64,000 nucleotides of DNA, taken from positions 1,925,223 to 1,989,222 of the forward strand of contig OZ316892.1 of NCBI GenBank assembly GCA_973895155.1, written 5' to 3'. The position numbers and the translations under genes were made by a program. This document shows positions 36,018 to 59,670 of this stretch, piece after piece. The notes below the pieces were generated by a model, which saw only the letters and a list, made by a program, of their open reading frames with translations, made no database searches and had not been told where the DNA came from. This DNA is from Marsupella aquatica. Its lineage: Eukaryota > Plantae > Marchantiophyta. Every line of letters begins with the position of its first letter. Within the stretch, counting starts at the first letter, position 1.

Positions 36018-36545
36018 TTTGCAATTCCTGGTATTTTAGTTAGCTATGCTATGCTATATGCTTGGGCATCATCTGGAAAGCCATTGTTGCCCACTAGCCT
36101 TTCTTCCCGGTAGACTGCATTTAAGTTAAATGGCAAGCATCAAGGTACATACTATTATTTGCCCACTTCACCTTTCTTCCCTAGTGGCTGCATTTTAGCT
36201 AAATTGCAATTCCTGGTATTTTAGCTAGCTATGCTATGCTATCTGCTTGGGCATCATCTGGAAAGCCATTGTTGCCCACTTGCTATTGGCTGCATTTTAG
36301 TTAAAATTGCAACAATCAAGGTACATACTATTATTTGCCAACTTTGCCTTTCTTCCCTATTGGCTGCATTTGAGCTAAATTGCAATTCCTTGTCTTTTAG
36401 CTAGCTATGATATACTATCTACTTGAGCATCATCTAGAAAGCCATTGTTGCCCACTTGCTATTGGCTGCATTTTAGTTAAATTGTAGCAATCTAGGTACA
36501 CATTATTATATGCCCACTTTGCCTTTCTTCCCTAGTGGTTGCATT
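35991..36545 (+). repeat. Tandem repeat, ~176-185-bp unit x3 (family C), overlapping the PAF stop codon
   Basis: cttcccta(t/g)tgg(c/t)tgcat recurs at 35991, ~36176, ~36352 and ~36527. An inverted partial copy lies at 55468-55613. Confidence 0.85.
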
Positions 36546-38959: not shown

Positions 38960-40183
38960 CAAATTTTTTTTATCCTCTTGCGCAACATTCCAACTATAAA
39001 AGAAAAACCTCCTTTGGAAGTCAACAACATGACATTCATTAGAGGTTCCCTACGGATGTTTTCCCATCCATTTGATAAAAGAGAATAACCAAAAGGTTTT
39101 GCCTCCTTCATGGTTTTGGTCATGTCTTTTGTAAGATCTTCATTAGTCTCCTCCAACAACTTCACTCGCAAATTTTGCATAATGGGAAGAGAACACCCAT
39201 TTACAATACCATTTGAAGTTTCATGTACTCGGAGGGGTCACTTCCACGGAAGTGGCACATCACGTTCAATGAAGTATAGGCCCATTTAAATGAGTGTGGC
39301 GAAAGATTTTCAAAGTTTGGTGAAAGAATACATAGGACATGTGTTATTGCCTGGTCAACTTTAAAGAATACATAGGCCTATTTAGTCGAAAGAAATATTT
39401 TCCTTAAAGTTTTTAGGGGTTTTTCAGTAAAAAATGTTAAAATTTAAAGAAAAAAAAAGATTTTGCAAAGAAATATAATTTACTTATAAGCTAGGGGGTC
39501 AAACCCTAAAATGTGGCATGCAATGTATGGCCCTCCATATAGTGATCCCCCGAGCTCATGTACAACTTCTCAAAAATAGATTTTGTAAAACAATGAATGC
39601 AAACCACTTGTGTAAAAAGCTTTTGCTCGAAGCTTGTCCAAATGTGCTCTGTAGAATTTGATAAACATCCATAATTGGGTTGGAAAGATTGCTTGCCCTA
39701 GCCGTATGAGTCCTATTTGACTCATCCTCCATTTGAAAATGGTTTGACTCTCATATGTGAATGCTTGTGAATTGGAATTTCCAATAGATGGCATGCGACT
39801 CCTTGCATCCCACAAAATATGGGTTCCATCCCTTCGTTGGTAGTTGATATTTGGTGAAAGTTTGATAACATTGTACATTTTGTTGATTTTATCCAACTCC
39901 ACATCACCATAGAGTCCTAGGCATGGTGATGCATTCCCTTTGATGATGTTTCCATCAAATGTGCCTTTACTCGTGTTGCATGAAAAATATTATATATTTT
40001 ATAAAACTTGCATTTTTGATAGATAAGGTTGACATCATTAGATATTAACGGTGCATCACATTGTTCAAAATATTTCCACGCTGTAGAAAATTTTGGACCA
40101 TGCTCATGCGAATGATTTGGTCCATGCCTAGGGACAGTGGAATGATATCCAAATTCATCAGACTCATCCTCATCAAAAGACAT
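38960..40183 (-). pseudogene. Degenerate hAT transposase 5' half (BED + start of DUF659), same family as 50895-53801
   Basis: MSFDEDESDEFGYHSTVPRHGP...WKYFEQCDAP matches MSDEEDSHETGYHSTTPRPGP...WRYFERCDAP, and GYSLLSNGWENIRREPLMNVMLLTSKG matches GYSLSSDGWENVQREPLMNVMLLTSKG. It has frameshifts, stops, a catalytic D>N change and a MITE insertion, and is truncated near 38960. Confidence 0.9.
39228..39554. mobile_element. 327-bp MITE nested in the dead transposase
   Basis: Imperfect TIRs ctcggaggggtcact / agtgatcccccgag, with an 8-bp TSD ttcatgta (39220-27) / ctcatgta (39555-62). Removing it restores colinearity with the intact transposase. Confidence 0.8.
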
Positions 40184-41726
40184 TGTTCTAAAGATAGATG
40201 TCTATATAGAGTTCAAACTCTGTAGTCTCTACCATCAACATAATGAGAGTGTCATCTCCGCTCCAACACACACTGAATTTACATATATACAACATTATAA
40301 AATAAATATTTACTCCATGTCAAAAGATCATATATTTTGCACATACCATGAAAGCAAACAACAAACACATTAAACAATCACATTTTGCAACATTTTTAGG
40401 TCCCTAAAATTTATAACGAGTATTTTTCTTCCCTTTAATCTTTGGTTGTAACAAATAAAAAAGAGTAGGACATTTTGATGAGTTACCACAAGCCGAGCCG
40501 AAGCTCCAAGATTGCGCACCATCATTTCCCAATCTCTCATACTTGCGTACATCCCTACTTTGTCCTACGTTGTAAAATATGTATTACTAACAATCATTTA
40601 TTTATGAAGCAAAAATATTTTCAAAGGAATCGTGACACACATGTGAAATATCACAGACTAAGCCAAGGCTCCAAGCCAACGCACTTGAGTTTCTCTATCC
40701 TTAAATTTTTCCGCTTTGTAAAACAATAACGTCAAGTTGTTAAGGCAATATAAAAAACTTTTGTACAAAATATCCCAAGCCGAGCCAAGGCTTCAAGCCT
40801 GCTGGTACAAGAATTCTTATATATCCCTCCATTTTAGAATAGACATAATGGAATGTATATGATAAAACCAATACTAAAACAAAGAAAATTTGCAAAGCTT
40901 ACCTCTTTGGTTTCTATCCTGGGTTCTCAACAAGTACAATGATAGAAATTCTATAACATCTCCCCTTTTATCCCCTTGCAATGACCCCTCTTCCTGGCAA
41001 ATGAGGCCTTTCAAGCCCTAATTTATAGGCAACCCCGCCCTAATCTTGGCCGCCCCGACCCTTAAACCTAATCCCGGCCGCCCTGACCTTTCCCGGTCCT
41101 CTTATTCTCGGCCCAACCCTCCCCGACCCCTGACCCGCCCCGCTCCGCTCCCCGACCCAGCTCCTCGCCCCGACCCTGGCCCCCGCCCCATCCCCCTCGG
41201 CCCTGCTTCCACCCCAACCCCCGCCCCTACCCCAACTTTACCGGGAGAGTCCGGGACCGGGCCGAGAGACTTTGGGACAGGGCCGGGAGGATTAGGAAGA
41301 GTCCAGGACTGGGCCGGGAGGGTTCTGGAAAGTCTGGGACCCGGCTGGGAGGGGTTGGGAGAGTTCGGGACCAGGCCGGGGATGGGTTGGGAATTTTTGG
41401 TCCCGGCCGGAGAATATAAGGGAATACTGGACAAATAGACCATTTTTGGGCAAACAAACTATCATTTGTCATGTCGGACTTCCCCTTATGGTACATCAGT
41501 GTTTCATTCTCCGAACTCCAATTTATTTTAGTGATTATTTTAATTTTTAATTTGGTCCTCCAATGGCTGGCTTCCTTGTACTTTTTCTATGTGCAAATTA
41601 CTTGAACCCCCCATATATATTCCATTTAATGTTTCGATGTAGAAATTGATTGAACCCGTAGACCCCACTCCCTGTAAGACACGATCAATTGCCCTCGCAT
41701 TGGCTCCAACATTCATTGATAATTTT

Positions 41727-41945
41727 GTACTCCTGGGCCGCCATCGTGAATACGGTAGTGTGGAAACAAATTCAAATTTGTATCCTGTAGTGTGGAAACA
41801 AATTCAAATTTGGATCTTGACATGTTGGTGCTTTTTAACGGTAGGCATATTGCTAGGAAGTTGGTGGGCTTATCATGAATTAGGCTGGGGCGGCTGGTGG
41901 TTCTGGGATCCCGTAGAAAATGCTTCTTTCATGCCTTGCTGTTTT
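41727..41945 (+). pseudogene. ccmFN: Nuclear copy of a mitochondrial ccmFN fragment (NUMT), WWD heme-handling region
   Basis: [49 protein letters not shown] is the CcmF signature. It is preceded by [10 protein letters not shown] in another frame via a ~32-bp duplication, and followed by a stop. Confidence 0.9.
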
Positions 41946-43149
41946 TAGTTACTCATCAAATGGCACTTTGCCTATGTTTATGAGCCTAATGATTTCTCGG
42001 GGGCACAGCACGATAGAAAACTCAATAAAATTCTGGTATTCTTGCCTCGTAGTTTGCTTTCTTGAATCTTCATCTTGGGCAGGTGCGCGCAGGCTAAAGA
42101 GCATCTTGGACGAATGTTTATTTTAGATGGGTATACGGATAGATCTAAAGGTGTCAAAATATAATGTTTTGATGAAAGGTCAAAATTGGTTTTCATTTTT
42201 TATTAGGGACAGAGTATTATACTGGTAAAAAATGGTAGAGGGAGTAACACTTTATATGCATGGATGGTACCAAAACAACTCTGGTGCATTGGTAGCCACT
42301 TTTATTGCTTATAATTAGAAACAGTGTCACTTTTTCCCTTCACACAAATGTAATTAATTTTTTGTTTATTTCTTCTCTTTGTTCATTTTTTCCTTTTTGG
42401 GCCCTGCAAATTTAAAAGATGACCACTCTATAAAAGAGCGGGACTTTGTATTATAGTTCTTGATTAGACTAGCCCAATTCCCATGCAGTGGATGTTGTGG
42501 GGAGTTGGAGAGTAGGTCTAGCAGTTGGATCAGATACTTTCTTCCCCCCCTTGCTATAAAGATATTTGGGCAACTTCAACATCAATTCACTGGGCTTCTT
42601 CAACAGGTGGCTTGAGACATTCACTGAAGGGTGGGTTCCATCAGATCACCATTATTTTATTAGATCATGCACTTTTGTCAACAAATTTCACTAACATTAC
42701 AACTTGCTCAAGCTCAACCTATCTTTTGTAGATCTCTCACAGCGGATACAAGTGTGCCTCCATATAGTCTTGCCCCTTTAGAGCACATCAACTTGCAGAT
42801 TTAGTTACAATACAAAATGTGTACCATTCACTCGTGACACTTTTGTGTTAGATGTGTAACATTATCTCATCAAAGTGATGTAGTAGTAATTATTTTGCCT
42901 TTTTTCTATTCATCTTTTAGCTACATTGCCACTAAATATGTTCTAATTAACAAAAGTGCCATTGTTTTTTATTGTGTTTTCAAATATGCAACTGTTTTGT
43001 ATATTCTCATTTTTGTTACGTCATTGAACTTGTCATCTTTATACAAAACATTGGCATATTTATACACACACAAACTAATAATGGCCATAATAAACCAATT
43101 TGAATATCTTTCCTGGCAAAATAATTAGAAGTTTGTTCTTTTTCCTCTT

Positions 43150-43285
43150 TCTAGATTTTCAAGGCTATTTGCCTCTTGTTTGTCATCTTTTGGATCTCTT
43201 TTGCTTTTCCTTCATTGTGTTTCAGGGTTATTTGACTCTTGTTTGTCCTCTTTTGGATTTCTTTTGTTTTCCATTCATAGTGCTT
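43150..43285. repeat. 54-bp tandem repeat, about 2.5 copies
   Basis: tttcagg(g/c)tatttg.ctcttgtttgtc.tcttttggat.tcttttg.tttcc.ttcat is repeated. Confidence 0.75.
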
Positions 43286-43734
43286 TGTTTGGCTCGTTTG
43301 GTGAATTGTGTCCTGTATATTTTCATGTAACATCAACCAAGGAAGGCAGAAAGAAGACTGCAAACATACAAATCAACATTGGCAAAAGCATCTGTTGACG
43401 TGTTCTTCATGGGGAGATGTTAAATTCGTGTCCATCTCAGAAGCAAATGGATCTGGATATTAAGCAGTACGTGATCCACAATTGTCACTGGTTTAGATGA
43501 ACATAATGAGATGCTACTCAATTAACACAGATACTCCACCAAAGAAAAACTACATGATTTCCCGAAAGGCAATTATCATCCATTAAACTTGAAGTACTCT
43601 AGTATAACGAATCTCGGCTGCTTGCAGCTGGCCGAGTAACTTCCTCATCAAGACCAATTCTCATCAGACAGCAGCCAAATCCCGGTTTGACCTTGCCCGT
43701 CAAACTGGGCGTTTGAGAGCGGCAAATTGACAAC

Positions 43735-44210
43735 CCGGCACCCGGGTTCGGAAGCAGTCCGGGAAAGGAAACGTCCGGTTCGGGGTTCGGGTTCGGGAGG
43801 AGGTTCGGGAGGAGGTTCGGGTGGGGGTCCGGGTGACTAATCGGGTCCGGGTCCGGGGCGGAGGCGCTCGGTGGGGGCTCGGGGTGCGGTCCGGGTGGGG
43901 TTCGGGTCCGCTCGGTGGGGGTCCGGGTGGGGTTCGGGTCCGGGTCCGAGGGGTTCGGGTTCGGGAGGTACGGGGGGTTCGGGTGGGGTCCGGGCCCGGG
44001 GCGGAGGCGCTCGGTGGGGGTTCGGGGTGGGGTCCGGGTGGGGTTCGGGTCCGGGAGGCCGGGGTGGGTCCGGGTGGGGATCGGGGTTCGGGGTTCGGGG
44101 TCGGGTTCGGGGTTTGGAAGTTCGGGGTTCGGGATTGAGGCTCGGAGAATTAGGGTTTCGCGATTTAGGGTTGGAGGATGGGGCCGGCCGGGAAAGGGTC
44201 GGGGGCTCGG
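43735..44210. repeat. Left subterminal GC-rich repeat array (GGGTTCGG / GGGTCCGG units)
   Basis: Dozens of ggggttcgg/gggtccgg units, strongly G-skewed on the + strand, followed by telobox-like attagggttt (~44149) and a (GGA)n tract at 44268-44341. Confidence 0.9.
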
Positions 44211-44456
44211 GAGAGGATAAAAGGAGGAGATCCCTCCTCTCCCTCCTCATTTTCGGTTTTGCAGAAAGGAGGAGAGGAGGAGAGGAGGAAGAGGAGGAGG
44301 AGAGGAGGAGGAGGAGGAGGAGAGGAGGAGGAGGAGGAGGCAAGTGTTTGGTTTTGGTTTTTATTTTTGATTTTTGGTTTGTTTTTATTTGTTTATGTTT
44401 TGTTTTGTGATTTTTTAAGTTTTTTTTGTGTTTTAAACCTTAACCTTAGAGCCAAA

Positions 44457-44810
44457 TGGAGGGATATAAAGAAACACTTGTACGCGCACGCTTTGAGCCT
44501 CGGTTCGGTTTGCGATACTCCGTACAAGAATTTCTTAATATCACCTTAACAATTTAGTCTCCTTTGTTCATTAAGTAAAACATTTGCGGAGATAGAGGAA
44601 TCCATGTACGCATGCTTAGAGTTTCGGCTTGGTCTGCGATACTTTGCATGGATACCACGATTCGCCGAGAATGTTTTTACTTGAAATACAAATGAGTGTT
44701 AAGTTATAGACACCAAATCACATATGTCGAAGCAGGAATATAACAACTTTGAAAGAAAAGAACACTTTTGTGCGCATGCTTTGAGCGTCCACTCGGTCTG
44801 CGATATTTCA
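44457..44810 (+). promoter_or_regulatory. Left internal subterminal block with three copies of a ~40-bp motif, mirrored at 53890-54246
   Basis: tgt(a/g)cgc..gctt(t/a)gag...cggtctgcgata at 44477, 44605 and 44769. 44457-44555 is a close reverse complement of 54150-54246. A regulatory role is inferred. Confidence 0.6.
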
Positions 44811-45032
44811 CAAGTGTTGTCTTTCTCTTTTATTATTGTTATATAGAAAGGTAATTAAAATCATGTGTGCAATAAAAATACATAATGCATGGGAGAAATA
44901 AATCGGGAAAAGATAATAACAATACGACTTGTAATTTTCAGGTTGGTCGTTGAATCCTTATTGGAAGGATTTTATTTAAATCCCGGTAAGATCTTGTTCC
45001 TCCCTCACATATTCCTTTTGTGAAGGGAAAAC

Positions 45033-46688
45033 ATGGTCATCGAAAATTTTAGTTTAGAGTATAGGCAAGTGTTGGAGATGATCACAAAACATGTGAATGA
45101 GGGATATGAGCCGAATCTTGTTGCTCTGGATGCATTGAAGAACGCTCGAAACACTCTCGAACATGCTAGGAATTCTAGCAAAGTGGCCGGGAAACGAAAA
45201 CGGAAGGGGGCAAACGAAGAGGCAAAACAGGTTCGACACAATGTGGTAGTGTCGATATGGAAAGAGATACTTTATCGCTACACTCAACCGAAACAGTATG
45301 GGGTGGACGGGTTCGAGAGGGAGTTCACAAGACACGGAGAGAAAGGATACAAGAACTTTCTTGGTGAGATAACCCGTTGTATGCGGGAAAGTGTACAAAA
45401 GGAGGACAATTTCACACGAGAGCAAATGAAGTCATTTGAAGATGAAACTGAGAAACCGGGAGGATTTCTGGAAAATTTGGCACTCAACTCGGAGAAGCAT
45501 GTTTGGGATAATTTGGCAGCCAAAGTGGAAGAGGGTGACACTACATTGCTTGGAAACCCCGGGATGTACACACACAAGAGAGAATTGCTAGTGAAGTGGA
45601 GTAAGGAGTTGGCAATGGCAAAATCTGATAGCAATGTCAAATATGCTAACGAGATTGTGCACTTTGGGGATGTCAGCATCAAAAGTGCTCGAAAAGGAAC
45701 ACGTCCATCGCGTGTAGTTCCAGAGGTTAGGAGTATCCATTTTCTTAAACCTGAGCAGGTGCACAACACACGTCGCATTGGGAAAGGAATCCAAGGAGAG
45801 GTATACACTTGTCGTATATTACATTGTCCTCTCATTCCCGTCAACGTGACCTTAGTCGCAAAGCGGTTCAAGGATGGAGACAAGCATAAGAGACGAACTG
45901 ACGCATTACAAGAAGTGCTTATGGGAGGACTGAATCATAAGGGAATCGTTGGAGCTCTTGCGTTGACTATTGAGGATCCGCCAAAACTTATTTACGATCA
46001 CTATAATGGAGGTGACTTGGGTAGCTTTATTGATAAGTGCGGCATATCATCAAAGAGCAAGGGGAAGGCACAGATCACGACAGACCTTGATTTCAAGTTT
46101 ATTTCGGAGAAGAAACTCTTGTTGGAGAACCGGTTGGGAATCGCCTTGGCTTTGCTGGAGACACTGCAATACTTGCATGAGCATGATCGATTTCATTGTG
46201 ATCTTCACTTTGGAAACATCCTTCTTCATTTCGATCACGAGCACGATGTGGCTATTAAGGTGTATGTTGGTTTATGTGATTTTGGCTTGTCTAAGCATAA
46301 ATCACAGTGCAAATTACCAGCTAATCGGATGTGGCCCACAGCAACAGAAAAAGCAGCAACATACCAAAAACAATTTCCACAGTTGGCTCCGGAGCTTGTT
46401 CAACCTACCCCTATCGAGTTTAGTGAAAGTACCGATATATATGCTTTGGGGAATATTTTTGAGACATTGTTGACAGAGAATTGGGATGGAATGTCTAAGG
46501 GTTCACGGTTTTTGGGGAGGGGTTGGAGTGCACAAGTGCATGGCCCCAAATTGGATATCATAATCCGTGAAATGATGGCCACGGATGCCAAGAAAAGAAT
46601 GGATTGTGCTTTTTGGAGTTTGAAGATAGTTCGAACGTTTCCAGATTGCACATTGTATTTGCACAACAGTCCATATCTTAGAGATTAG
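45033..46688 (+). CDS. Transposon-borne protein kinase, intronless, with basic NLS-like motif
   Basis: 551 aa with all core kinase motifs: IGKGIQGEVY (G-loop), LVAKRF (Lys), HCDLHFGNILL (catalytic loop), LCDFG, LAPE, TDIYALG. KRKRK lies near the N-terminus. Confidence 0.88.
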   Translation: MVIENFSLEYRQVLEMITKHVNEGYEPNLVALDALKNARNTLEHARNSSKVAGKRKRKGANEEAKQVRHNVVVSIWKEILYRYTQPKQYGVDGFEREFTRHGEKGYKNFLGEITRCMRESVQKEDNFTREQMKSFEDETEKPGGFLENLALNSEKHVWDNLAAKVEEGDTTLLGNPGMYTHKRELLVKWSKELAMAKSDSNVKYANEIVHFGDVSIKSARKGTRPSRVVPEVRSIHFLKPEQVHNTRRIGKGIQGEVYTCRILHCPLIPVNVTLVAKRFKDGDKHKRRTDALQEVLMGGLNHKGIVGALALTIEDPPKLIYDHYNGGDLGSFIDKCGISSKSKGKAQITTDLDFKFISEKKLLLENRLGIALALLETLQYLHEHDRFHCDLHFGNILLHFDHEHDVAIKVYVGLCDFGLSKHKSQCKLPANRMWPTATEKAATYQKQFPQLAPELVQPTPIEFSESTDIYALGNIFETLLTENWDGMSKGSRFLGRGWSAQVHGPKLDIIIREMMATDAKKRMDCAFWSLKIVRTFPDCTLYLHNSPYLRD

Positions 46689-46868
46689 GGTTTACACAAT
46701 TTTGTAAAGGTCACCTTAACGATTATATGTTTATTCATTGTATGTCAATTACAATGTTCTGCATTTTGTTGATAATATTCTATCAAAATTTGTCGTGAAT
46801 GCCCAAAATTGTGCTAAATGTGTTTGTACATTGTCAAATATCGCAGACCTTTTGTACACATCGCAAAC

Positions 46869-48827
46869 ATGGGACGATGGGAATTGTCTTCTGATGATGA
46901 AGACAAAGAGTTCACGACACAACATCTTACCATGCAAGATGGTCAAGGATCCTATTGTGACGATGAAGCTCTTCGTAATAATGTGTTGGATAATCTTACA
47001 ACCATTGGCATTCACTATGAGGCTAAACCCAAGGTTGATGGAACACCGGCGCCAAACACAAGAAGATGGGAAGATGAGGGTATGAAGGATGAATGGAGTA
47101 TATTAACGCCCAATGTAAATCCTCCCCATGACGAATGGGCCATGAATGCAAAGGAATTGGAGATGTTGATGCCAAAGAAAAACTTTTGGCCATTAGCACA
47201 ACAAGTTTTTCACGATCCGGATCTTTGGGCAACAAGATCATGGGCGCAAGAAAAATTCACCATGTCCAAAGTAACACATGCAGGTGTTAAATCACATTGG
47301 CAGCAACGATATCGAGAGTTTGCTCCACACAAAGCCCAAACAAAAATGAGTTCCATTTACCCTCCTTTTATCCGATGTCTGATTGCTGAATTCATTCTCA
47401 AGTGGAAGGTGGATTACCGTTGGGAAAACAATGCTGGCAAGCTGACTCATCAGGTGCATCCATCAGTGGTTGCGATTGCAACGAATAGGAATACAACTAT
47501 TGCAAAGGACCCTTCAATGGAGACTTCCAACAAGGGATCCAAAAGAAAGCTAGATGACATTGGGGAGGGATATGCGCATGAGAAGGGGAAAGCGGCTGTA
47601 CTTCCTCGAGTCTCCATGCCTGACCGTGCAGCACCACCAACCAATGTGGAGTCAACGCACACCAAAAAACCAATCCTTGTAGGTGTTGGGAGTAGAACTC
47701 CACATGCAAAGAACAACAATGTTACTGATGCTAACAAGGATAAGTTCAACCTGCACAACATATGCAAGAGCTTGGGGGCAGATGTTGCAGAGGTGATTGA
47801 GACAAATCTCCGCACGAAGTATGTAGTGGAGCTATGTGAATGTGGCAGCATCGAAAAGTTCAAGTCACAATTGCAACAAGCTGATATAAAGATGAGATCA
47901 CTTGAGAAGAAGCAGAACGAGCCGACGACCAATTCGGAAGTGATGTTGTACAAGTGTCAATTGTTTGACAAGATGGAAGAAATCAATAAGCTGACAAAAC
48001 AACTTGCTGAAAAAGAGCGTCAATGCAATGAACTGGCACGACTTGAGGAGAAGGACAAGATCATTAATGATCTTAAAAGTGAACTTGCAACGCAAGCAAT
48101 CATCATATCAAATCTTCATGAAGAGGTGCAAGAATTTAACAATGATGCTTTGGGGATGAGGTCAAACAAAGGGCAAGGTGAATTATCGTCGCCAAATTTT
48201 GTTAACATGCAAATCATAGATCCTACAGGGCACAACAACCTTTTTCCAGATGTGGAGGTTGACGCGGAAGGTATTGATAGGTTTTTTGATAAGTGGAAAA
48301 AGGATGAAACTATGACAGCATTTGTTCGTGAAAAGGATGACAAGTGTACTTGGTGCCTATATCCTTGGGGCCCTGAATCTGTTTCCATGTTGGGAACCTG
48401 CGGTCATATATGGCATTATGCTTGCTTGTCTAAATGGTTGAAGAAAAGCCGAAAATGTTGGTGTCGCACACCATTTCATGAACGCGAGTATGAGCAACGA
48501 GGATTGTTGAAGCAAATGCCATCAATGGAGACTCAACAAAACACTGAAGATATGACTGAAGATATGACTGAAGATACTATACCGGCGATGCAAATAGATG
48601 AAACTCCCATTGAACATTTCATAATCAATGAATATAATTTGTCAGATGGGGAATTTGACAGGTTGTTATTCAGTGGTCGACTCGATGAGTGGAAACAATA
48701 TGCGGCAGCCAACCAGCCATCAATAGATGAGCAAAATTTGCAACGATCCATTCGGCGCCATCGACGATGTCAACAACAGGCAGAGGTGAAAACAGAAGCT
48801 GTTGACAATAACAACAAAAGGAACTAA
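46869..48827 (+). CDS. Transposon-borne coiled-coil + RING-H2-like protein (putative E3 ubiquitin ligase), intronless
   Basis: Open frame 46818-48827 with first ATG at 46869. Heptad-rich EEINKLTKQLAEKERQCNELARLEEKDKIINDLKSEL and CTWC-x14-CGHIWHYAC-x9-CWC RING-H2-like motif, plus SKRKL NLS-like motif. Confidence 0.8.
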   Translation: MGRWELSSDDEDKEFTTQHLTMQDGQGSYCDDEALRNNVLDNLTTIGIHYEAKPKVDGTPAPNTRRWEDEGMKDEWSILTPNVNPPHDEWAMNAKELEMLMPKKNFWPLAQQVFHDPDLWATRSWAQEKFTMSKVTHAGVKSHWQQRYREFAPHKAQTKMSSIYPPFIRCLIAEFILKWKVDYRWENNAGKLTHQVHPSVVAIATNRNTTIAKDPSMETSNKGSKRKLDDIGEGYAHEKGKAAVLPRVSMPDRAAPPTNVESTHTKKPILVGVGSRTPHAKNNNVTDANKDKFNLHNICKSLGADVAEVIETNLRTKYVVELCECGSIEKFKSQLQQADIKMRSLEKKQNEPTTNSEVMLYKCQLFDKMEEINKLTKQLAEKERQCNELARLEEKDKIINDLKSELATQAIIISNLHEEVQEFNNDALGMRSNKGQGELSSPNFVNMQIIDPTGHNNLFPDVEVDAEGIDRFFDKWKKDETMTAFVREKDDKCTWCLYPWGPESVSMLGTCGHIWHYACLSKWLKKSRKCWCRTPFHEREYEQRGLLKQMPSMETQQNTEDMTEDMTEDTIPAMQIDETPIEHFIINEYNLSDGEFDRLLFSGRLDEWKQYAAANQPSIDEQNLQRSIRRHRRCQQQAEVKTEAVDNNNKRN

Positions 48828-49330
48828 AACCAATAGTCTCTACATTTTGATGTTATTTTCATGTAGTTACTATTAGAGACATTTTGTTAAAATAGAAGCG
48901 GCATATCCTCTTTGACAATTATTTTCAACTTGTAATTGGTAAAGAGATTTTGGAGTGACATTACATTGCATATCTCGATGAGTACATATATTTTTCATTG
49001 GGGGCATGGCGTTGCCTTTTGGAGAATGTGTATTTTCGTAAGAATATTCCATCCTCCAATCAGCCATAGGTTTTGGAAGCATATTGTCGGGCTCACAATC
49101 ATATTTTTGGACAAGTATGAGGAAAATAGACGTGATGAGAGACGGTAGCACAGTGGACTCAGGTACTGATCCTTCTCTGAAATCATTTCCAAAAGGAGAT
49201 CGTGTAGCACAATGAGTTCAACAAAGTCAACATCGCAATGGTTTTAGCCGCCCAAGTTGAGAATGATTTTGTAGAAGGATGTATACCTAAGTCCACTCAC
49301 TTTTCCTATCTTTCATAATTTTTTCCGCTA

Positions 49331-50660
49331 TTGCTGCTACGGCCAATGACATTCATGCACATGCGAACCGAGGCCAACGCCTACTCCTTTGCCCACCGCA
49401 AAAATGGGCCCTCATTACAACTTGAAGTTGAACGGAGTTTATTTGAGTACGAGAGAAGTTCTGAAAGCAAATGCACTCTCAGGTCAAATTTTCAGGTCCT
49501 TCGAGCAAAAAATTACTGAGTATGTCATCGATCCGTTGGTTTCACAACTTCTCTCGTACTCAAATAAACTCTGTTCAACTTCAAGTAGCGTAGCTGCTAC
49601 GACCAATGACATTCATGCGCATGCAAACCGAGGCCAACGCCTCTACATTTGCCTACCCCAAAAATGGGCCCTGATTAGAACTTGAAGTTGAACAGAGTTT
49701 TTTTCATTATGAGAAGGTTTATTCAAGCAATGGCACTCTCAGGTCAATATTTCAGGTCCTCCTGACTTTGTTATTATTGAATATGTTCGTGCTATGTTGC
49801 TTGAATAAATCTTCTGATAATGAAATGAACTGACCAATTACTGGAGTACGGCTACTACGGCCTATGACATTAATTTGCACAATTGCATGTTTATATCCTC
49901 TCCTTTCCGAATTCCAATTCGAGCTTGGACATCCTCTCGTCAGCTGGTCTCCACCATTGCAGTTGCTCTTCACGCAAACCAAGATAGCAGTCTCTAGAAT
50001 CCTCGAACCTATTTTATTTCAATGCATCATTCATAGTGTTTGAGGAATCCAGAGGTTCGCGTGAGGAGCAACTGAAAGGGTGGAGACCTGCTGACGAGAG
50101 GGTGTCCAAGCTCGAATTGGAATTTGGACAGGAGAGGATATAAACGGGTGAACTTTGACTTGAAATTGGTGACTGTATTTTGCGTCTGCATATCAATTTG
50201 GTGACCGATCTTGCGGAATCCCCGTGACCGTGTCTGATCATCATCATGACATTGCTCTCCTTGGCCACCAATGGGCCCTCATTACAACTTCAAGTTGAAC
50301 GGGGTTTATATGATTATGAGAAGGTTACTGATCATGTAGGCGATGTGTTCATTTCACAACTTCTCTCATAGTCATATAAACTCTGCCCAACTTCAAGTAG
50401 TGCAGCTGCTACGGTCAACGACATTCACCCACCCCAAAAATGGGCCCTCATTACAACTTCAAGTTCAACTAAATTTATTTTATTACGAGAAGGTTTATTC
50501 AAGCAATGACATTCTCAGGTCCAATAATGAGGTCCTCTCGAACTCATTATTATTGAATATGACGGTGCTCTATTGCTGGACTAAATCTTCGCATAGTGAA
50601 ATGAACTAACCAATTAATGGAGGGGGCTAGTATGGACTACGGCTGCTATGGCCAACAACA
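49331..50660. repeat. Internal repeat array of the transposon (~170-260-bp units)
   Basis: gctgctacg..caa.gacattca...aaaaatgggccct.attacaactt.aagtt recurs at 49331 and 49591 (260-bp period) and partially at ~50270 and ~50400. Confidence 0.85.
49889..50145 (+). ncRNA. Long fold-back hairpin, pre-miRNA/hpRNA-like
   Basis: Arms 49889-49980 and 50054-50145 (92 nt each) are reverse complements with 8 differences by manual alignment. An inner stem 49992-50008/50038-50054 follows a bulge. Four differences are G:U-compatible on the + strand. Expression is unknown. Confidence 0.6.
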
Positions 50661-50894
50661 AGGTACTTTGAAATAGTCAGTGTTGGAGATTTGGAAAACA
50701 TGTTGCGTTGGTGTGTCTCTATGGCATTCTCAAATGCAAATACAAATAAATTATTCAATCATTGTACAATAATAAACACACTGCAAGACAATACAATCAT
50801 GTTACAAAAAATATAATTGTTTATAATTTTGTCTATGTCAGATACGACAATATAAGAGTAGCAACACTTGATATTATCCTAATGAAAAGATGCT

Positions 50895-53801
50895 TCAAGG
50901 CTGTGAAGAGAAATTTCGTGCATTGTTGTTAAGATTTTTGCACAAAAGCGCATTCCACTCGTCTTGTTTGTCGCCCCAACTGAGTGGATCACGATTGTGT
51001 GACTGAACATTGTGCGATGTTTCTTGAAATGATGATATTCCTCGAAACCCACCAAGGCCAATAGGCCTGTTCGACGTATATGGATTCATGACACTTGGCC
51101 CTGCATACGCATTCAAGGGTGGACCTGCATGGTGTTGCCAGTTTGCATGTGGGTCGTTTGAAGTTTGACCTTCATGATTGTTGTATCCATGAAAAAAGGT
51201 TGATGTCCTTCCATTCGTCGAATGCCCTGCTGTGCCTGTGCGTTGCTCGTTGAAATATGGTCTGCTTGTGTCAACATCATTCGCAAAGTTCGACCAAGGT
51301 GACCTTGGTTGGGAAGGCATCACAAAGTTTCTGTCCAGTGATGCATCTTCCTCGTCTTGGATTTGCGATTCATCAATTGTAGGATACATCTCCAAATCCA
51401 TTTCATTCTCCCATTCCTCTGCAGCAGTGATGTCTGTATCTGGTGGAATACGAGTCAACAACTCACTATCCTTATCCAGTGAAAATCCGTGTAGCAATTC
51501 ATCAGCATCATCAATTGTATCATAATCTTCGACATCTTCTTCACCAAGAGCCGCACGTGTTGCATCGTACTCTTCATTGCTGCACAACTCCATGGAGATA
51601 GGTCTAGGTCCATCATTTGTTCTTCTTCTTTGGTCATAACGTTCATATATAAACGTATGCGGGTTTCGAACATTTGTGAGCCCTTTCTCTACCCTCATGT
51701 TTGTAAATACAAACACCAAATCTTTTGCTCGATCATTTGTCAATCGATTGTGACTTTTGGAATGTATAAATCCATACGAACTCCAGTTTCGCTCGCAAGC
51801 TGATGCACACACTTTTTGGTGTAAGATTCTTCGCGCCAGGATTCTCAAATATTTATAATCTGCACCATACGCATGCCACCACTCTGCTGGACTGACATTA
51901 CCTATACTTGATTGGGCGGCTCCCATCGCTATTGATGTGTTGGGATTTTTTTTTGGGGCGTCAATGGCTTGACTGTGGATGGCAGAAATAAGTTCTCTGA
52001 CGTCGCGATCATGGTTGATCCCCTCCTTCACCTGTTGTTCTGAATATCTAGCAATGTATTCACTGAAACCCCTGTAGAGTTCTGGATCTCCAGCGACATC
52101 TATGTCCTCATCAAAAAACATTTGGGGATTGAGATATGCTGCCGCTAGCATGAAATCAGTGGTAAGAGATTTTTTTCGATCCAAATACACTTTTAGTATC
52201 TTTGGTTTCAATACCTCTATTACCAATGGACAATCCTCCATGCTTGCTTTCAAAACATCAATCCCTATTTTCAAACTCCAATACAACCAACCTGATTGCG
52301 GAGAATCACCATCAAATTCTCGCAACATCTTGACCAACGGAGTAAAGAATTTAACTGTATCCTTCACTTCAACCCAAAATGTATCTTGCTGTATCCACAT
52401 TTTAAGTTCGTCTGCCTTTCCCCTCGTCATGTGTCCAGCTGATTTTGGTCGCAATGGAAGTCTATCACGATAAGACTGCCAATTATCATCAATGACCATC
52501 TGTTGTAAAGCTCCTCTTAGCTCCAACGCTCTTTGTGCCATTAGGAAATTGGTCGCAAATCTAGTTGCATTTGGACTCAACAGTTTTTTGTCAGGAGATT
52601 TTCTTGCAAATATTGCAGAAAGCTTTTGCGATGATGAAACTGCTTTTACTATCCACCTCAACCGTTTAAAAATCTTTTGGAATGGATTCTGTCCAGCATC
52701 ATCTAGCACTACACGCTTGTGACCACACATATCCTCTAGCAGCAAATTAAACACGTGGGTAGCACACCAGCTCCAAGTGACATGAGGATACTTTTTCATG
52801 ACTACCTCACAACCTGCTACGCGATTTGCGGGTGCTCCATCAGTTACAATTTGAATAATATGATCTGCACCAATATCCTCAATGTATTTCAACCACATGT
52901 CGCCAAGATATTTCCCATCTTTCTTGTCAGCTTGCGCAGCATTCCAACTATCCAAGAAGAAGTCACCTTTAGAAGTCAACAACATGACATTCATCAAAGG
53001 TTCTCTTTGGACGTTTTCCCATCCATCTGAAGAAAGAGAATACCCATAAGGTTTTGCCTCCTTTAAAGTTTGCGTCATGTTCTTTGTGAGATCCTCCTTA
53101 CTGTCTTCCAATAATTTCAATCGCAAACTTCGCATCGTAGGTAGAGAATAACCATTGACAATCCCTTTTGAAGTCTCTATGACTGCTTCTTGAAAAAAAG
53201 GATTATTTGAAACATTGAATGGAATACCACTGGTGTAGAAAGCTTTCGCCCAAAGCTTATCCAAATTTGTTCTATTTGGAATTTGATAGGCATCCATAAT
53301 TGGGTTAGGAAGATTTACTGGCCTATCTCCTTCCCTTACATGTGTATCATCCATGTCAACATAGTTTGACCCTCGTGTGGATGCTTGCGAATATGAACTT
53401 CCAACGCTTGGCCTACGACCTCTCACATCCCGCAAGATATGACTTCCATCTCGTCGTTTGTACTTTAAGGTCGGTGGAACCTTTATCACATTGTACATAA
53501 TGTTGATGGCATCCAAATCGACGACACCATAGAGTTGCATGCAAGGGGGCGCATCCCCTTTTTGGATGTTTCCCATCAAATGCGCCTTTGCTCGTGTTGC
53601 ATGATGAGTAACGTATGTTAAACAATACTTGCATCTTCGATAGATACGATTGACATCATGACATGTTGAAGGCGCATCACATCGTTCAAAATATCTCCAC
53701 ACTGGAGATTGTTTTGAAGGGTGTTCTTGCACACGAGTTGGACCAGGCCTGGGAGTAGTGGAATGATATCCAGTTTCATGCGAATCCTCTTCATCGGACA
53801 T
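50895..53801 (-). CDS. hAT transposase (BED zinc finger, DUF659, hATC dimerisation domain)
   Basis: First ATG at 53801 gives 968 aa. BED finger WRYF...CKYC...HATRAKAHL. Catalytic residues in SSDGW, VTDGA and ACERNWS, plus CATH (CxxH) and PAEWWHAYG...LARRIL. No internal stop. Confidence 0.95.
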   Translation of the reverse strand: MSDEEDSHETGYHSTTPRPGPTRVQEHPSKQSPVWRYFERCDAPSTCHDVNRIYRRCKYCLTYVTHHATRAKAHLMGNIQKGDAPPCMQLYGVVDLDAINIMYNVIKVPPTLKYKRRDGSHILRDVRGRRPSVGSSYSQASTRGSNYVDMDDTHVREGDRPVNLPNPIMDAYQIPNRTNLDKLWAKAFYTSGIPFNVSNNPFFQEAVIETSKGIVNGYSLPTMRSLRLKLLEDSKEDLTKNMTQTLKEAKPYGYSLSSDGWENVQREPLMNVMLLTSKGDFFLDSWNAAQADKKDGKYLGDMWLKYIEDIGADHIIQIVTDGAPANRVAGCEVVMKKYPHVTWSWCATHVFNLLLEDMCGHKRVVLDDAGQNPFQKIFKRLRWIVKAVSSSQKLSAIFARKSPDKKLLSPNATRFATNFLMAQRALELRGALQQMVIDDNWQSYRDRLPLRPKSAGHMTRGKADELKMWIQQDTFWVEVKDTVKFFTPLVKMLREFDGDSPQSGWLYWSLKIGIDVLKASMEDCPLVIEVLKPKILKVYLDRKKSLTTDFMLAAAYLNPQMFFDEDIDVAGDPELYRGFSEYIARYSEQQVKEGINHDRDVRELISAIHSQAIDAPKKNPNTSIAMGAAQSSIGNVSPAEWWHAYGADYKYLRILARRILHQKVCASACERNWSSYGFIHSKSHNRLTNDRAKDLVFVFTNMRVEKGLTNVRNPHTFIYERYDQRRRTNDGPRPISMELCSNEEYDATRAALGEEDVEDYDTIDDADELLHGFSLDKDSELLTRIPPDTDITAAEEWENEMDLEMYPTIDESQIQDEEDASLDRNFVMPSQPRSPWSNFANDVDTSRPYFNEQRTGTAGHSTNGRTSTFFHGYNNHEGQTSNDPHANWQHHAGPPLNAYAGPSVMNPYTSNRPIGLGGFRGISSFQETSHNVQSHNRDPLSWGDKQDEWNALLCKNLNNNARNFSSQP

Positions 53802-54374
53802 TGTTACGACTCTCAATGGTAAAAAAATAAAAGGGTTGATTCTTTTGATTTTGTGAATATAACAAATATAGTACAATGGGTTACTTTCCTGAATTATCGC
53901 AGACTGGGCCTAAGCTCAAAGCATGCGCAGGAAAGTTTCCCAAATTCTTATATTTGTCAACATCCCTACTTCAACCTATGTTATGTAATATCTATAACTT
54001 CACAATAGTTTATCTTTGAAGTGAACATATGTACGAGAAATAGTGATACCCATATGAAATGTCATAGACCGAGCCAAAGCTCTAAGCATATGCACATGGG
54101 TATCTCTTTACTCGCAAGTAGTTCACTTTCAAACAAAACAATGATGCAAAGTTGTTAAGGCGATATAAGGAACTTCTCGTACGAATTATCGCAGACCGAG
54201 CCGAGCTCAAAGCATGCGCGTACAAGAGTTCCAATGTATCCCTCCGATCTCTCCCTAATGCTAAACCACAAGAGAGAGAAACACAATGAGACTTTGGATT
54301 AGTGAAATGAATTAGTTATTCCTACTTATACTAAATCATCTACTTTTTATCCTCTCTTAAAACTCTTAATCTTT

Positions 54375-54985
54375 GATCCTAACCCTAATTGCGCCTCCCT
54401 TAACCCTAATCTCGCGCCCCTAACCCTAATCCCGCCTCTAACTCTTCCCCGGCCACCAATTCCCGAGCCCCGTCCCCGAACCCCGCACCCCGTTCCCCGA
54501 ACCCCGTTCCCCGCATCCCCGAACCCCCTACCCGAACCCCCTTCCCCGAACCCCCTACCTCGTTCCCCGAACCCCGTTCCCCGAACCCCGTTCCCCAAAT
54601 CCCCGAATCCCGGCCCCCCTTTCCCGCCCCCCCTTCCCTGGTTCCCCGAATCCTCTTCCCCGAATGCCCCCCGTCCCCGGTTCCCCGAATCCCGTCCCCC
54701 GGGCCACCTTTACCCCGGCCGGCCCCGGAAGGGTCCGGGCAGGGTTCGGGTGGGGGTCCGGGGAGGGTTTGGGTGGGGGTCCGTGGAGGGTCCGGGAAAG
54801 GCCCGAGAGTCCGGGGAGTGTTCGGGGGAGGGTCCGGCGAGGTTCCGGGAAAGGCCCGGGAGGGTCCGGGGAGGGTCCGGGAAGGGCCCGGGAGTCCGGG
54901 TTCGGGTCAGGGGGAGTTCGGGTTCAGGTCCGGGGTGCTCGGGAGGTGTTCGCGAAAGGTCCGGGGAAGTCGGGGTTCGTTCGGG
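54375..54985. repeat. Right subterminal region: telobox-like taaccctaat repeats, then C-rich CCCGAACCCC array switching to G-rich GGGTCCGG array
   Basis: taaccctaat x3 in 54379-54430, ccgaacccc units in 54470-54700, strand switch near 54715, then gggtccgg/gggttcgg units to ~54980. Confidence 0.9.
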
Positions 54986-55467
54986 AGAATCTTCAGGAAT
55001 ATACGTCAAATTGCGTGTTTTCGGGCCGTCATTTGACGATTTGACGTGCCCGACAAGGCGTCAAGGTGCCCGTCAGATTAAACCGGGAGCCAAATCCTGG
55101 GAAAGCTTGTTCATTGGATATCGTCTGCCACTTCCTACGCAGAGGATCGCTTTCCAACTCTAAGAGGATTATTTTAGTATGTCTATTAAGATTGTCCCTC
55201 ACCGTGTATAAACCCTGTGTAAACCTCTGTGACTTTTGCATCCTGTTACGACAGAGTGAAGATCTTAGAAGGACAGAGCACATCTCCAGTTGGAATTTCG
55301 AGGTCTAGGCCAGTCACTTGGAGATTCAACTATTAACCCTGGAAAAATGATCACAATTTATTCACCTCCAGTGAACTCGTGAGGGACTACTCATCAGCCC
55401 TCAGTTATCGGCCTACATTCTACTGTGCTTCACTGCAGTAGTCATCCAGCCACTTCACGTTTCCATT

Positions 55468-55613
55468 GGAGAAAGGCAAAGTGGGCAAATAATAGTATGC
55501 ACCTTGATTCTTGCGATTGAACTAAAATACCTGGAGTTGCAATTTAACTAAAATGCAGCCAATAAGTTAGAAAGGCAATGGCTTTCCAGATAATGCCCAA
55601 GCAGATAGCATAG
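55468..55613 (-). repeat. Inverted partial copy of repeat family C
   Basis: gaaaggcaaagtgggcaaataatagtatg.accttgat...aactaaaatgcagccaata...caatggctttccagat.atgcccaagcagatagcatagc is the reverse complement of the 36.0-36.5 kb unit. Confidence 0.8.
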
Positions 55614-56290
55614 CCGCAGAGGCAGAGGCAGAGGGTTGAAGCAAGCATTTTGTCCCGCTGCGGATAAGGGCCTCAGAATAATGAAGGGCGTGCGGGAGAG
55701 CGTTCGCTCATCGCTCATCGTCAGACATGGGCGTGCGGGAGAGTCTCCTCCTACATTGCTCAACTCCTTCCTTCTGTGGAGACGAAGCTCAGCTGAACGG
55801 GCACGAGAGTCTCCTCCATCGCCCAGCTTCTTGTGGTGTGGAGACGTGAGGAGAGCAGACGCTCAGAAGCTGTGAGCTTCTTGTGGTGTGGAGATGTGAG
55901 GAGAGCAGACACCGAGTCAGACAGTGAGTGAGTATACAGTAGGAGTCGACGAGGATTCGGGCGAACTGCTTGTCCTTTTGGTTGTTGCTTGCGTGCTCTC
56001 TCGCAGATTGCTTGCTTAGATACATACAATCCGCGGTGACATCAACACTTGTCGTCGTCATTTCCGGATTGGAGAGTTGGAGAGGTGGAGTGAGCCATCG
56101 GCCCTGTTTTCTTTTGGTCTGCTTGTGTTGTGGAGAGTGTCGGTCGCGAGTGTTGCGCTTCTGGGTTACAGCTTGCGGATGTGTGTTTGTGTAGTCCCCT
56201 GTGCTTGCTTTTCAGGAGAGGTCTAGGGAGGGAGAGGGTTTCAGGAACGCGACGGCATTGTGTCGGAGGAAAAGGGGAGGGCGCATCAAA

Positions 56291-57934
56291 ATGGCGTTGA
56301 GACACTTCGCAGCTCAAACAGCCACTGCGCTGAAGGTGCGATGTACTCCGAGGATTCATTCCGGATTCTCTGTACCGCTCTTTCGATCGATGTCGACTGG
56401 TACGCTTTCACACTCTCACAATCACAACTCAGCCGCTTGGTTTCTTCAGTATCTGGCAGGCTTCCAGAGGACATCCTTGTAATGCATGGCCTTCCTCTGT
56501 AGTATCGTTGAGGAGTGCATTCTGCCAAAGGAAGTCTTCCTGTACCGGTGAGCCGGTTGCAGAGGGGATTCCTGCTTGTTTTACACTTGGCGAGGTTTCC
56601 ACGTCTTGAAGAAACGCCAAAATGAAATCCCTGAGGCCAACTGTCCCTGTTGGGTCTCGGATCCATCTTGATTTTGGAGCATTTAAACTGCATTGCACAT
56701 GAGCGAGAATGCGGCATACCGTTCATGGAGCTTAGAGCCTGTCTTGCAAGAGTTAGGACCATATGTTCTGTTAGCACACATCTGTAAGGCTGTATGCAAC
56801 TTTTACAGTATGTACCCTCAGTGTTCTCTCTTTTGAAATTAACGAAGTATTCGTCGCGACAGTGATTCTTCAGTACTTCGCTATGGGACTCGCAAGGAGC
56901 ATGCGATTTAGATGTAGAGGGCATCAAGATACGTTTTGTGTCGCGCACATTCATGTTTTCTGCGGGAGTTTCCGGTTTTTTCCTTGGAGTCTAGTGCGTT
57001 CATACGAAATTTTGTTGTCTCTTTGCACAGTTCTCGAGAATCTGAAGTATGCACCTTCTCACGAATGGGTCAGAGTGGAAGGAGACGTCGCTTATGTCGG
57101 CATCACCGATCACGCTCAGGTAGGTACATGTCTTTATGGAGGACTTGCCTCGACAGTTCGCGGCAGCTGTGGATGGGAGGAAGCCTAATCTTAGGAAGCC
57201 TAATTTCAGGGAAATGTTCACGTGTCGTGTGCGACTTATCGAAATCTGCTGTCATTGCAATCCTTTTTGGGCTTGCGTATTCATTTCTGTCGAACCACTG
57301 GTATTCGCTGTCCATCAGATTGGTGGAGTGAGTGGGAATTTATTATCGTTTCACAATGCCCTTGTCTAATCTCTGATATTACCCGGAACCTGCAGACTGA
57401 GCTCGGAGATGTCGTCCATGTCGAAGTGAAGATGGCAATAGACGAGAAGGTGACCAAGGGTTCCCCTTTCGCAGTTGTCGAGAGTGTCAAAGCAGCTAGC
57501 GATGTATACGCCCCCATATCCGGCACTATCGTCGAGATCAATGACACCCTTGATGGTAGCAAAAGCCCCGAGCTGGTGAGTTACACTATCTTTGCGATGA
57601 GTTCTGGGCTGATGCTGACGACAATATCCCCTACAGAGCCTCGCTTTGATATTTCTTGCTAGCTTGCAGGGCTCCTGGAATTGGAACCGTTTGTGCGAGA
57701 TTTTGTCTGGATCCTGTTTAGAGAATTTATGCAAGGGTTCAACAACAGTCGGAAAGAGATGTGGGCGTTATTTGAGTCATGTTTTGACATTCTTGGTATC
57801 TTGACGTGCAGGTGAATAAAAGTCCATTCGAAGAAGGATGGTTCGCGAAAATCAAGTTGACGAATCCTTCAGAACTTGATACTCTCTTGGCACCCAAGGC
57901 ATATGAGGACCATGTTGCAGCTACTGCTCATTAG
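56291..57934 (+). CDS. GDCH: Glycine cleavage system H protein, mitochondrial; exons 56291-56399, 57031-57119, 57396-57575, 57812-57934
   Basis: Transit peptide [16 protein letters not shown]...FRSMST, then [18 protein letters not shown]|TELGDVV, lipoyl-lysine motif [16 protein letters not shown] and [10 protein letters not shown]. All three introns are GT-AG and in phase. Confidence 0.95.
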
Positions 57935-59209
57935 GGGCATAACGCAGGCCAGGCAGGGCAGAGGCAATACATTCACTACTGTCTGGTGAACTGAGCAGCA
58001 GTTAACAGGGAGTGCTGGGCTCATTGTGTTCCCCGGTCATGTTTTGTCGAACAGATGAACACGACGAAGGATGCATTGAACGTGCCCCTCTGTTTGGCTT
58101 CTCCACGACGGTAGAGTACGTTTGTTCCCTTAGGTTCTTACTCCCTTAACGTTGCTCATAATTTGGTCCTCAATTTTCTAAGGGTAGCCCAAGATGGCCG
58201 TCGTTCGCATGATCTTCTTGTACATTTTAACTCTAGCTCCTTTTCCTTCTGCCAGAGCTCCAAGACCAGCTCTCTAGTCACATCGTCAGATGCCTGGCAG
58301 TCTTATATGCCCTTTCATTGGGCAAGTTTCTGCTACTACAGTTCATTGTTCAAGTCTTTGGTCATCTCAAGACCAGAGACTCGACTATTTGTTGTGATTA
58401 ACTAAAAATCGAAGTGCATGCTGAAGTAGTTCTTCTTTAAATTTCAATTCGCACTAATCAGGGGACAATTGAAGTCAACCACAGAGACAGCACAGAATGG
58501 GATTCTAATCAAGTGCAAATTGTTAAGCAATTGTTGCATTGGTAAGCTTTTTTCATCTCTGGAGGGACAGGATGATCTGATTGGGAATTATATGAGCTCG
58601 TGACAGTAGCAGGTCTATGGAAAGATGGCAAGTCTTCCTCACCCAATGTATCACTGGGAGAAGTTTAACTCGTCTGGGTGCAACGGTGGCTTTGTGAATG
58701 GAAAGAACACCAGAAATCTTTTTATTCAGCCTCTTTGTTTTTCGAGTTCTGGGGATTTATGACTCCCTGCGAAGGCGTTGGAGTCCTTTCCTTTCCTTCT
58801 GGTATATTGGGAATACTCTTCTATGGATGTACAGTACACGTGAACTTGTACCTTGAATGTAAATTATGATCATTTCATAATTTATGATCAAAAGCCAGCC
58901 AGACCATACAAATGAATCCACATTCCTGAATGAGTAGAAGTGGGCCCCTCCTTCACTGCGCCAGGTAACCAGAATGGATCCCTTTTATCTAATCCATTAC
59001 AGAAATACAAAAATCCATTACAGTGCAAAGACCTGAGAAGAATCGCACGCAAGAAAGTATTTCCCATCACACTTATGTGTCTAACATGCTTTTCATGTGG
59101 AAGAGCTTTGATTTGAATTAATGTAGATGAATCATTTAATTTGCGGGGGGAATTATTCTCTACTTATTAAGGGCACTAATAATTCACAATGGGAAGCTAG
59201 TCTTAAGGC

Positions 59210-59670
59210 CCATGATCTAGAGTGAAGCCTCTAGGCCGGAACTCAATACAAACTAGTTACAAACAAAATTGTCAAGGAGTCTTAATAAGGACAATGAGAA
59301 GCTCCTATGATCTAGAGTGAAGCCTCTAGGCTGAACTCAATACAAACTAGTTACAAACAAAATTGTCAAGGAGTCTTAATAAGGACAATGAGAAGCTCCT
59401 GTTACGGCCTGTGGTCTAGAGTGAAGCTTCTAGGCTGGAACTCTCAATACAAAACAAAATTGAATTGCTGATGAACTGTAATCTAGAGTGAAGCTTCTAG
59501 GCTGGAACTCTCAATAACAAAATTGAATTGCTGTGGTCTAGAGTGAAGCTTCTAGGCTGGAACTCTCAATACAAACAAAATTGAATTGCTGATGAACTGT
59601 AATCTAGAGTGAAGCTTCTAGGCTGGAACTCTCAATACAAACAAAATTGAATTGCTGATGAACTCTCCAT
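59210..59670. repeat. Tandem array of repeat family B (tctagagtgaagc(c/t)tctaggc units)
   Basis: Six tctagagtgaagc.tctaggc starts at ~59217, 59311, 59415, 59482, 59537 and 59603. Confidence 0.88.

Follow-up and report, generated by a model that had tools for sequence, protein, structure and literature searches.

A multi-copy hAT transposon carrying a protein kinase gene, a RING-H2 gene and a hairpin cluster in Marsupella aquatica

A 64,000-nucleotide stretch of the Marsupella aquatica (Marchantiophyta) genome was analysed (GenBank assembly GCA_973895155.1, contig OZ316892.1, positions 1,925,223 to 1,989,222 of the forward strand; hereafter, the window). Within it, an 11,407-bp segment (approximately 11.4 kb) is bounded by an 8-bp target site duplication (TSD), AGCCAAAT, and contains a transposase gene, a protein kinase gene, a RING-H2 gene and a hairpin cluster (Table 1). 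The exact boundaries and perfect TSD proposed in an earlier sequence-only reading were re-found at 43673-43680 and 55088-55095, and the right boundary was obtained independently from 10 sequencing-run contigs. The 8-bp TSD, the short terminal inverted repeats (TIRs) and subterminal repeats at both ends, and a DDE transposase with a DUF659/CxxH region and a C-terminal dimerisation domain, whose residue roles are assigned from hAT motifs, place the element among the hAT transposons. The usual hAT terminal consensus, (C/T)A(A/G)NG, is common but not universal; the ends of this element start with CCCGG and do not match it. We regard the CCCGG ends as a peculiarity of the lineage; hAT membership is decided by the transposase. 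The subterminal motif occurs twice in the 49,900 nt of the window outside 41001-55100, and by analogy with a case described in excerpts of PMC10368747 the repeats are likely candidates for transposase binding sites. In a self-comparison, which was not exhaustive, no internal TIR/TSD pair that would point to a nested origin of the cargo stood out.

Table 1. Features of the element, with positions in the window.
Feature	Position	Strand	Remarks
Left TSD	43673..43680	.	AGCCAAAT
Left TIR	43681..43693	+	ends CCCGGTTT/AAACCGGG; 8 bp perfect, 11/13 extended
Left GC-rich subterminal repeats	43740..44200	.	GGGTCCG/GGGTTCG; 21 motifs in 520 nt
Promoter-like module	44455..44815	+	~340 bp, three motif copies 124 and 164 bp apart; upstream of kinase
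Protein kinase ORF, intronless	45033-46688	+	551 aa; ORF and Pfam
Reversed single copy of module motif core	46839..46849	-	upstream of RING gene
RING-H2 ORF, intronless	46869-48827	+	652 aa (669 aa from ATG 46818); ORF and Pfam
Hairpin cluster	49333..50660	+	tandem units with common leader
Hairpin H1	49420..49586	+	z -16
Hairpin H2	49696..49831	+	z -7
Hairpin H3	49889..50145	+	92-nt arms; stem unrelated to H1/2/4/5, leader the same
Hairpin H4	50281..50401	+	z -7
Hairpin H5	50474..50606	+	weakest; z -4.6
hAT transposase ORF, uninterrupted	50895-53801	-	968 aa; ORF and Pfam
Second copy of promoter-like module	53886..54250	-	upstream of transposase; 260/357 identical to first
Right GC-rich subterminal repeats	54440..55000	.	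17 motifs in 648 nt
Right TIR	55075..55087	-	inverted-repeat match; contigs departing into other flanks
Right TSD	55088..55095	.	AGCCAAAT

The transposase had been described as uninterrupted, and its ORF indeed runs through DUF659 (Pfam, 5.6e-30) and the hAT dimerisation domain (4e-9). It also contains a BED-like finger and a long acidic tail, which is common to P0033, and we take D259, D321, C346xxH349 and E670 to hold the roles typical of hAT motifs. The nearest named relative is a Ceratodon purpureus protein (28%). With P0023 and P0024, the transposase forms a clade of its own (support 100/100), and the nearest named clade contains Ceratodon proteins.

The two further uninterrupted, intronless ORFs that had been reported were likewise confirmed. 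The kinase (Pfam Pkinase, 1.4e-15) comprises a basic KRKRK motif, a helical N-terminal domain without Pfam match and a TKL-like kinase domain, and is probably nuclear. With G250KGIQG, K277, E294, H388CDLHFGN, D416FG, APE and D468, the motif set of an active ePK (Gly loop, VAK Lys, helix-C Glu, HxD..N, DFG and APE) is complete, and the nearest solved structure by profile was the TKL kinase Roco4 (E 7e-8). Eight homologue clusters with 48-73% identity were found among 7994 scored candidates, and a profile search yielded 63 representatives at E <= 1e-10 and 886 at 1e-3. The catalytic-loop motif was kept in 11 of 12 homologues, the remaining one being truncated. No relatives were found among 116 viral stretches, and the profile search of genome contigs gave no kinase locus; L003 was rejected as an ordinary bacterial kinase. 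Beyond some 30 family members, mostly fragments, the ranking continues with sister families whose loop is of a similar H[CN]DLH type and whose N-termini have no assignment. In P0085, P0089, P0090, P0093, P0095, P0099-P0101, P0104 and P0110, the loops are of the H[CN]DL[HS] type and a post-hinge insert is present; these sister families are possibly also transposon-borne. Between the kinase of the window and those of L001 and L002, synonymous differences were saturated (pS 0.72-0.75) while dN was 0.32-0.44, which shows the family to be under purifying selection.

The RING protein consists of a conserved N-terminal domain without assignment, a coiled coil and a RING-H2 domain with the ligands C493, C496, C511, H513, H516, C519, C530 and C532. 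The match to zf-RING_2 (3e-6) lay barely above the cut-off (27.8 versus 27.3 bits), and the best PDB match was RNF165 (8e-6). All eight ligands, including the final C-x-C pair, are conserved in P0020 and P0022. Because the last ligand pair is C-x-C, E3 activity is a prediction. Two homologue clusters (49-50% identity) were found, of which the sole named one is from Calypogeia fissa and could be a host gene. For the RING gene, the selection signal is thin (3 of 4 differences synonymous, among the 40 of 1153 differences listed). Pfam recognised no chromatin-binding domain in the kinase or RING protein and no VANC-like domain among the element proteins. AlphaFold models of both cargo proteins were poor (pLDDT 52 and 37, respectively), and fold searches returned nothing beyond kinases and matches of Z <= 5.2, leaving the N-terminal domains of both proteins without assignment. 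The L002 kinase is a dead copy with two in-frame stops. An ORF starts 182 bp after it (L002:1280-1561; the corresponding gap in the window is 180 bp) and is faintly similar to the RING protein; against three RING proteins, 70, 198 and 459 of 2000 shuffles scored equally well, which is at most a hint of kinship with the RING N-terminus.

Between the RING and transposase genes, the sequence-only reading had noted one long, small-RNA-like hairpin. This hairpin, H3, is real: its arms (49889-49980 and 50054-50145) are 91% complementary, and none of 200 shuffles was equally stable (z = -21). It is not single: four further hairpins had been overlooked, and the element contains five. H1, H2, H4 and H5 are tandem paralogues, and the leader of the units gave four matches versus 0.02 expected by chance, one of them preceding H3. 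The + strand folds better in all five, and such stable, strand-biased fold-backs would be in keeping with a plant miRNA cluster. The stems contain 15 G-U versus 4 A-C pairs (p = 0.02, with arm limits set by hand). Among the four paralogues, 7 of 25 stem pairs were changed on both sides, a count from only four related units whose structure was derived from the same sequences; arm-to-arm gene conversion could be an alternative source of these compensatory changes. Hairpin 21-mers had no match within four mismatches in the three genes of the element (best, five), so the hairpins do not look self-directed, and arm 21-mers had none within three mismatches in the rest of the window. As to a donor of the hairpins, peptides of the region gave no Pfam match (0 of 11), two PDB searches found nothing real, and seven Rfam matches were all far below the gathering score. 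Tiled folding across the whole window failed to detect H1-H3 themselves and could not serve as a control.

A duplication within the element had also been overlooked: the promoter-like modules upstream of the kinase and transposase genes are copies of each other. Their local alignment score was 296 (shuffle maximum, 38), and control stretches scored 22-35. The module also lies before the L001 kinase, where it scored 127 against the kinase module of the window (shuffle maximum, 30) and 89 against the transposase module, and before a decayed relative of the element at 38963-41460. An arrangement in which each end drives one of two convergent units resembles that of MuDR.

The decayed relative is a truncated hAT element in which the 5' part of the transposase is 43-75% identical at the amino acid level, with stops and frameshifts; it is interrupted at ~39223-39530 and retains the module and a GC-rich end. 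By eye, a stretch at 37131-37190 ending in TTAACCGGG resembles the right end of the element and is perhaps the end of another relative. The short stretch at 41800-41960 resembles mitochondrial ccmFN in a motif and is a probable organelle insertion. Tandem-repeat arrays occur at 36030-36540, 55470-55610 and 59200-59680, of which the first two look related by eye. Of eight ORFs scanned in the window, six had Pfam matches; PPR, F-box, VHS-GAT, adaptor, proteasome and GCV-H genes are present. An exact-match protein look-up of host and element ORFs returned nothing (0 of 3 and 0 of 5). The element lies ~1.2 kb upstream of the glycine cleavage H-protein gene (56291-57872, with ATG 56291 inferred; GCV_H, 1.8e-17) and could affect its expression.

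Contigs of four of seven sequencing runs were aligned to window positions 44900-56200. In run X1, which may be the window's own sample, the contig with the right-junction flank was identical to the window and had a depth of 17.7. The kinase-RING bridge, H1-H2, the H3-transposase bridge and the region upstream of the transposase are each covered by an element contig with 2-6 differences from the window; the depths of these four contigs were 211-243, a ratio to the flank of 11.9-13.7 that is only a rough guide to copy number. Ten X1 contigs leave the element exactly behind 55087 and enter unlike flanks (agreement 0.44), revealing other insertion sites at the right end, as expected of a mobile hAT element. 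Although no contig among those listed spanned the whole element, the depth ratio and the ten right-end exits indicate roughly a dozen young copies, mostly with cargo. Older copies at single depth, of both RING (83%) and transposase sequence, are present in X1 as well. Many element variants were found in X3 (organism B). In X5 (organism C), contigs 80-98% alike partly cover each of the three genes and reach the beginning of H3; depth was 12 in the H3 bin and below 1.5 in neighbouring spacer bins, including H1/H2, where missing cover is not evidence of absence. X6 contained diverged kinase and transposase pieces, and near-identical pieces at a depth of 3-6 that may be carry-over. At the kinase stop (position 46677), the main copies in X1 and X3 hold seven extra bases relative to the window copy.

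Among the 40 of 1153 differences listed, cargo differences between subfamilies were synonymous in 9 of 11 cases and private ones in 1 of 9 (Fisher p = 0.005), and transposase subfamily differences were synonymous in 2 of 9, with 5 of 9 in the tail. As a control, the transposase thus lacks the excess of synonymous changes found in the cargo. From the same 40, 15 of 19 private differences of the window copy were C>T/G>A, as expected if the copies are methylated, and 12 of 13 private coding differences were non-synonymous. By these private changes, the window copy drifts neutrally, probably in a methylated state, and may itself be non-functional. The element had been called intact; this is true of its uninterrupted reading frames, but not of its coding content, given that nearly all listed private coding differences change an amino acid.

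One explanation, passive hitchhiking, would have captured sequence and foldback repeats amplified in a single recent burst and intact only because they are young. In the main X1 copies, divergence from the window copy is only 0.33% (13/3965 nt), in fungi a hAT has multiplied histone H3 into hundreds of copies that were inactivated (excerpts of PMC6710886), and the RING gene, with its thin selection signal and its Calypogeia fissa homologue of possible host origin, would suit such an origin. We consider it decidedly improbable, since saturated dS is combined with full-length conserved ORFs, diverged RING copies (83%) exist in X1, RING ligands are conserved in P0020 and P0022, and no donor was found among the homologue clusters. 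A Pack-type element was rejected as well: the ORFs are full, the element has its own transposase, the best homologues are 49-83% identical, and no named donor appeared among the homologue clusters searched. The sequence-only reading had preferred maintained accessory genes to Pack-type fragments and had named a near-identical host donor among the observations that would speak against them. With cargo in most copies, purifying selection on the kinase and no such donor among the kinase and RING homologue clusters, this preference is upheld: the transposon is an autonomous-type hAT that conserves accessory genes.

L001 (1-5822) bears on what these genes may do. It combines the module with a 47%-identical kinase, followed within ~340 bp by a DUF6729 ORF (2e-11); the Atlas look-alikes of the second ORF were DUF6729 clusters, and the DUF6729 and core ORFs are probably one spliced transposase gene. 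We take this transposase to be Zisupton-like, a label based on motifs for which DUF6729 and the Atlas look-alikes are the only backing. It did not resemble the hAT transposase (best E 0.7), and within the contig there was no RING gene after the kinase, no KDZ Pfam match and no element ends. Judging from the ~340-bp gap, it is fairly probable that the L001 kinase moves with the Zisupton-like element. Kinase and module together look like a cassette exchangeable between transposon superfamilies, and because the L001 kinase precedes another transposase, with no RING gene after it, the kinase-RING-hairpin set is not a fixed unit. These observations also weigh on the idea that the accessory genes control their own transposase, the kinase activating or timing it and the RING protein degrading it, so that host damage is limited. 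The shared module before kinase and transposase would accord with such control, as would the long acidic, Ser/Thr-rich tail of the transposase, common to P0033. We nevertheless judge it unlikely, because the 47% kinase homologue stands before an unrelated transposase-like gene, which a host substrate fits better, and the hairpins do not match the transposase (best, five mismatches in 21).

We therefore favour, tentatively and at a little under even probability, the reading by analogy that the kinase, RING gene and hairpin cluster are kept for weakening host silencing of the element. The transposase would bind the subterminal repeats and mobilise the whole 11.4 kb, and the two modules would jointly activate two convergent transcription units, a transposase arm and an accessory arm. 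The kinase, which is probably nuclear, and the RING-H2 protein might then act on chromatin or silencing proteins of the host, the one by phosphorylation and the other by ubiquitination, and the hairpins might be processed into small RNAs against host transcripts. A kinase and ligase acting on host proteins would fit the pairing of the kinase with two unrelated transposases. The analogy is with passengers that counter silencing, for which PMC12730594 and PMC5735166 provide precedents. Against such a role, no chromatin-binding domain was recognised in either protein.

Selection on the kinase says nothing of its target, and the cargo could have another role, selfish or host-side: it might act as a toxin-antidote pair, cause drive at the spore level or alter signalling to the advantage of carriers. 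The kinase-bearing cargo of nematode Mavericks and linked toxin-antidote elements are a precedent, and the kinase family is large and diverse, as the 63 representatives at E <= 1e-10 attest. We hold this to be improbable: the hairpins match neither kinase nor RING mRNA (best, five mismatches), which argues against an RNA antidote, and the L001 kinase is not followed by a RING gene. Returning to the weakening of host silencing, a broader and more doubtful version would have bryophyte transposon superfamilies share an exchangeable effector cassette that disables silencing through kinase-triggered degradation of the silencing proteins and through small RNAs against host genes. The shared cassette would be the module plus an orphan kinase, here perhaps extended by the RING-H2 ligase and a polycistronic microRNA-like cluster into a virus-like counter-defence kit, a notion that we regard as speculative.

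The escape of DNA transposons from silencing has been explained in few cases; VANC is one, and the roles of TET/JBP and SET passengers are for the most part inferred. With its three separable accessory parts, a plant hAT that is young and multi-copy is a compact test system, and the substrates of its accessory proteins and the targets of its putative small RNAs would reveal where bryophyte silencing is vulnerable. Genome annotation would miscount the members of the large, unnamed kinase family as host signalling genes. The data also suggest that accessory genes move between superfamilies along with their promoter.

The statement of the sequence-only reading that hATs encode essentially only a transposase was overstated. 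In fungi, a TET/JBP gene is found in hAT7 elements and an alpha-kinase in IS3EU elements, with passive transfer of accessory genes between superfamilies, KDZ included (Kojima 2025; excerpts of PMC12730594), and histone H3 has been amplified by a hAT. Fungi thus already provide examples both of hATs with accessory genes and of DNA transposons with kinases. The combination of kinase, RING gene and hairpins in a hAT was not found in the open-access literature and is apparently undescribed; the accessible part of PMC13317346 contains neither hAT, kinase nor RING as whole words.

With Ac/Tam3/Tag1-like DUF659 hATs, the element shares the 8-bp TSD, short TIRs, subterminal repeats, BED-like finger, DUF659 and dimerisation domain, but its ends begin with CCC, it has two extra genes and five hairpins, and it measures 11.4 kb, compared with 4.6 kb for Ac (excerpts of PMC3260210). 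The TET+ hAT7 and IS3EU elements of rust fungi (excerpts of PMC12730594) resemble it in having a maintained accessory gene, a kinase opposite the transposase and cross-superfamily transfer; here, in contrast, the host is a plant, the TSD is 8 bp and not 7 bp, the kinase has an ePK/TKL fold and is not an alpha-kinase, TET/JBP is lacking, and RING-H2 and the hairpin cluster are additional. VANDAL/VANC is likewise a DNA transposon of plants that is large and has both accessory genes and tandem motifs outside coding sequence, but belongs to the Mutator superfamily, and its VANC protein binds DNA motifs and causes hypomethylation (excerpts of PMC5735166), whereas the present element has no VANC-like domain. 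The histone-H3 hAT (excerpts of PMC6710886) and the 14-kb ToxhAT (excerpts of PMC12506042) are also large hATs that amplify or move whole genes; the H3 copies, however, have a host original and are inactivated, while the kinase of the present element is conserved and the search for a close donor was negative. Finally, Zisupton/KDZ elements with an F-box isoform (excerpts of PMC12062965) share the use of ubiquitin-system domains, and in L001 a DUF6729 gene follows a homologous kinase, but the element in the window encodes a hAT transposase and its RING gene is a separate ORF.
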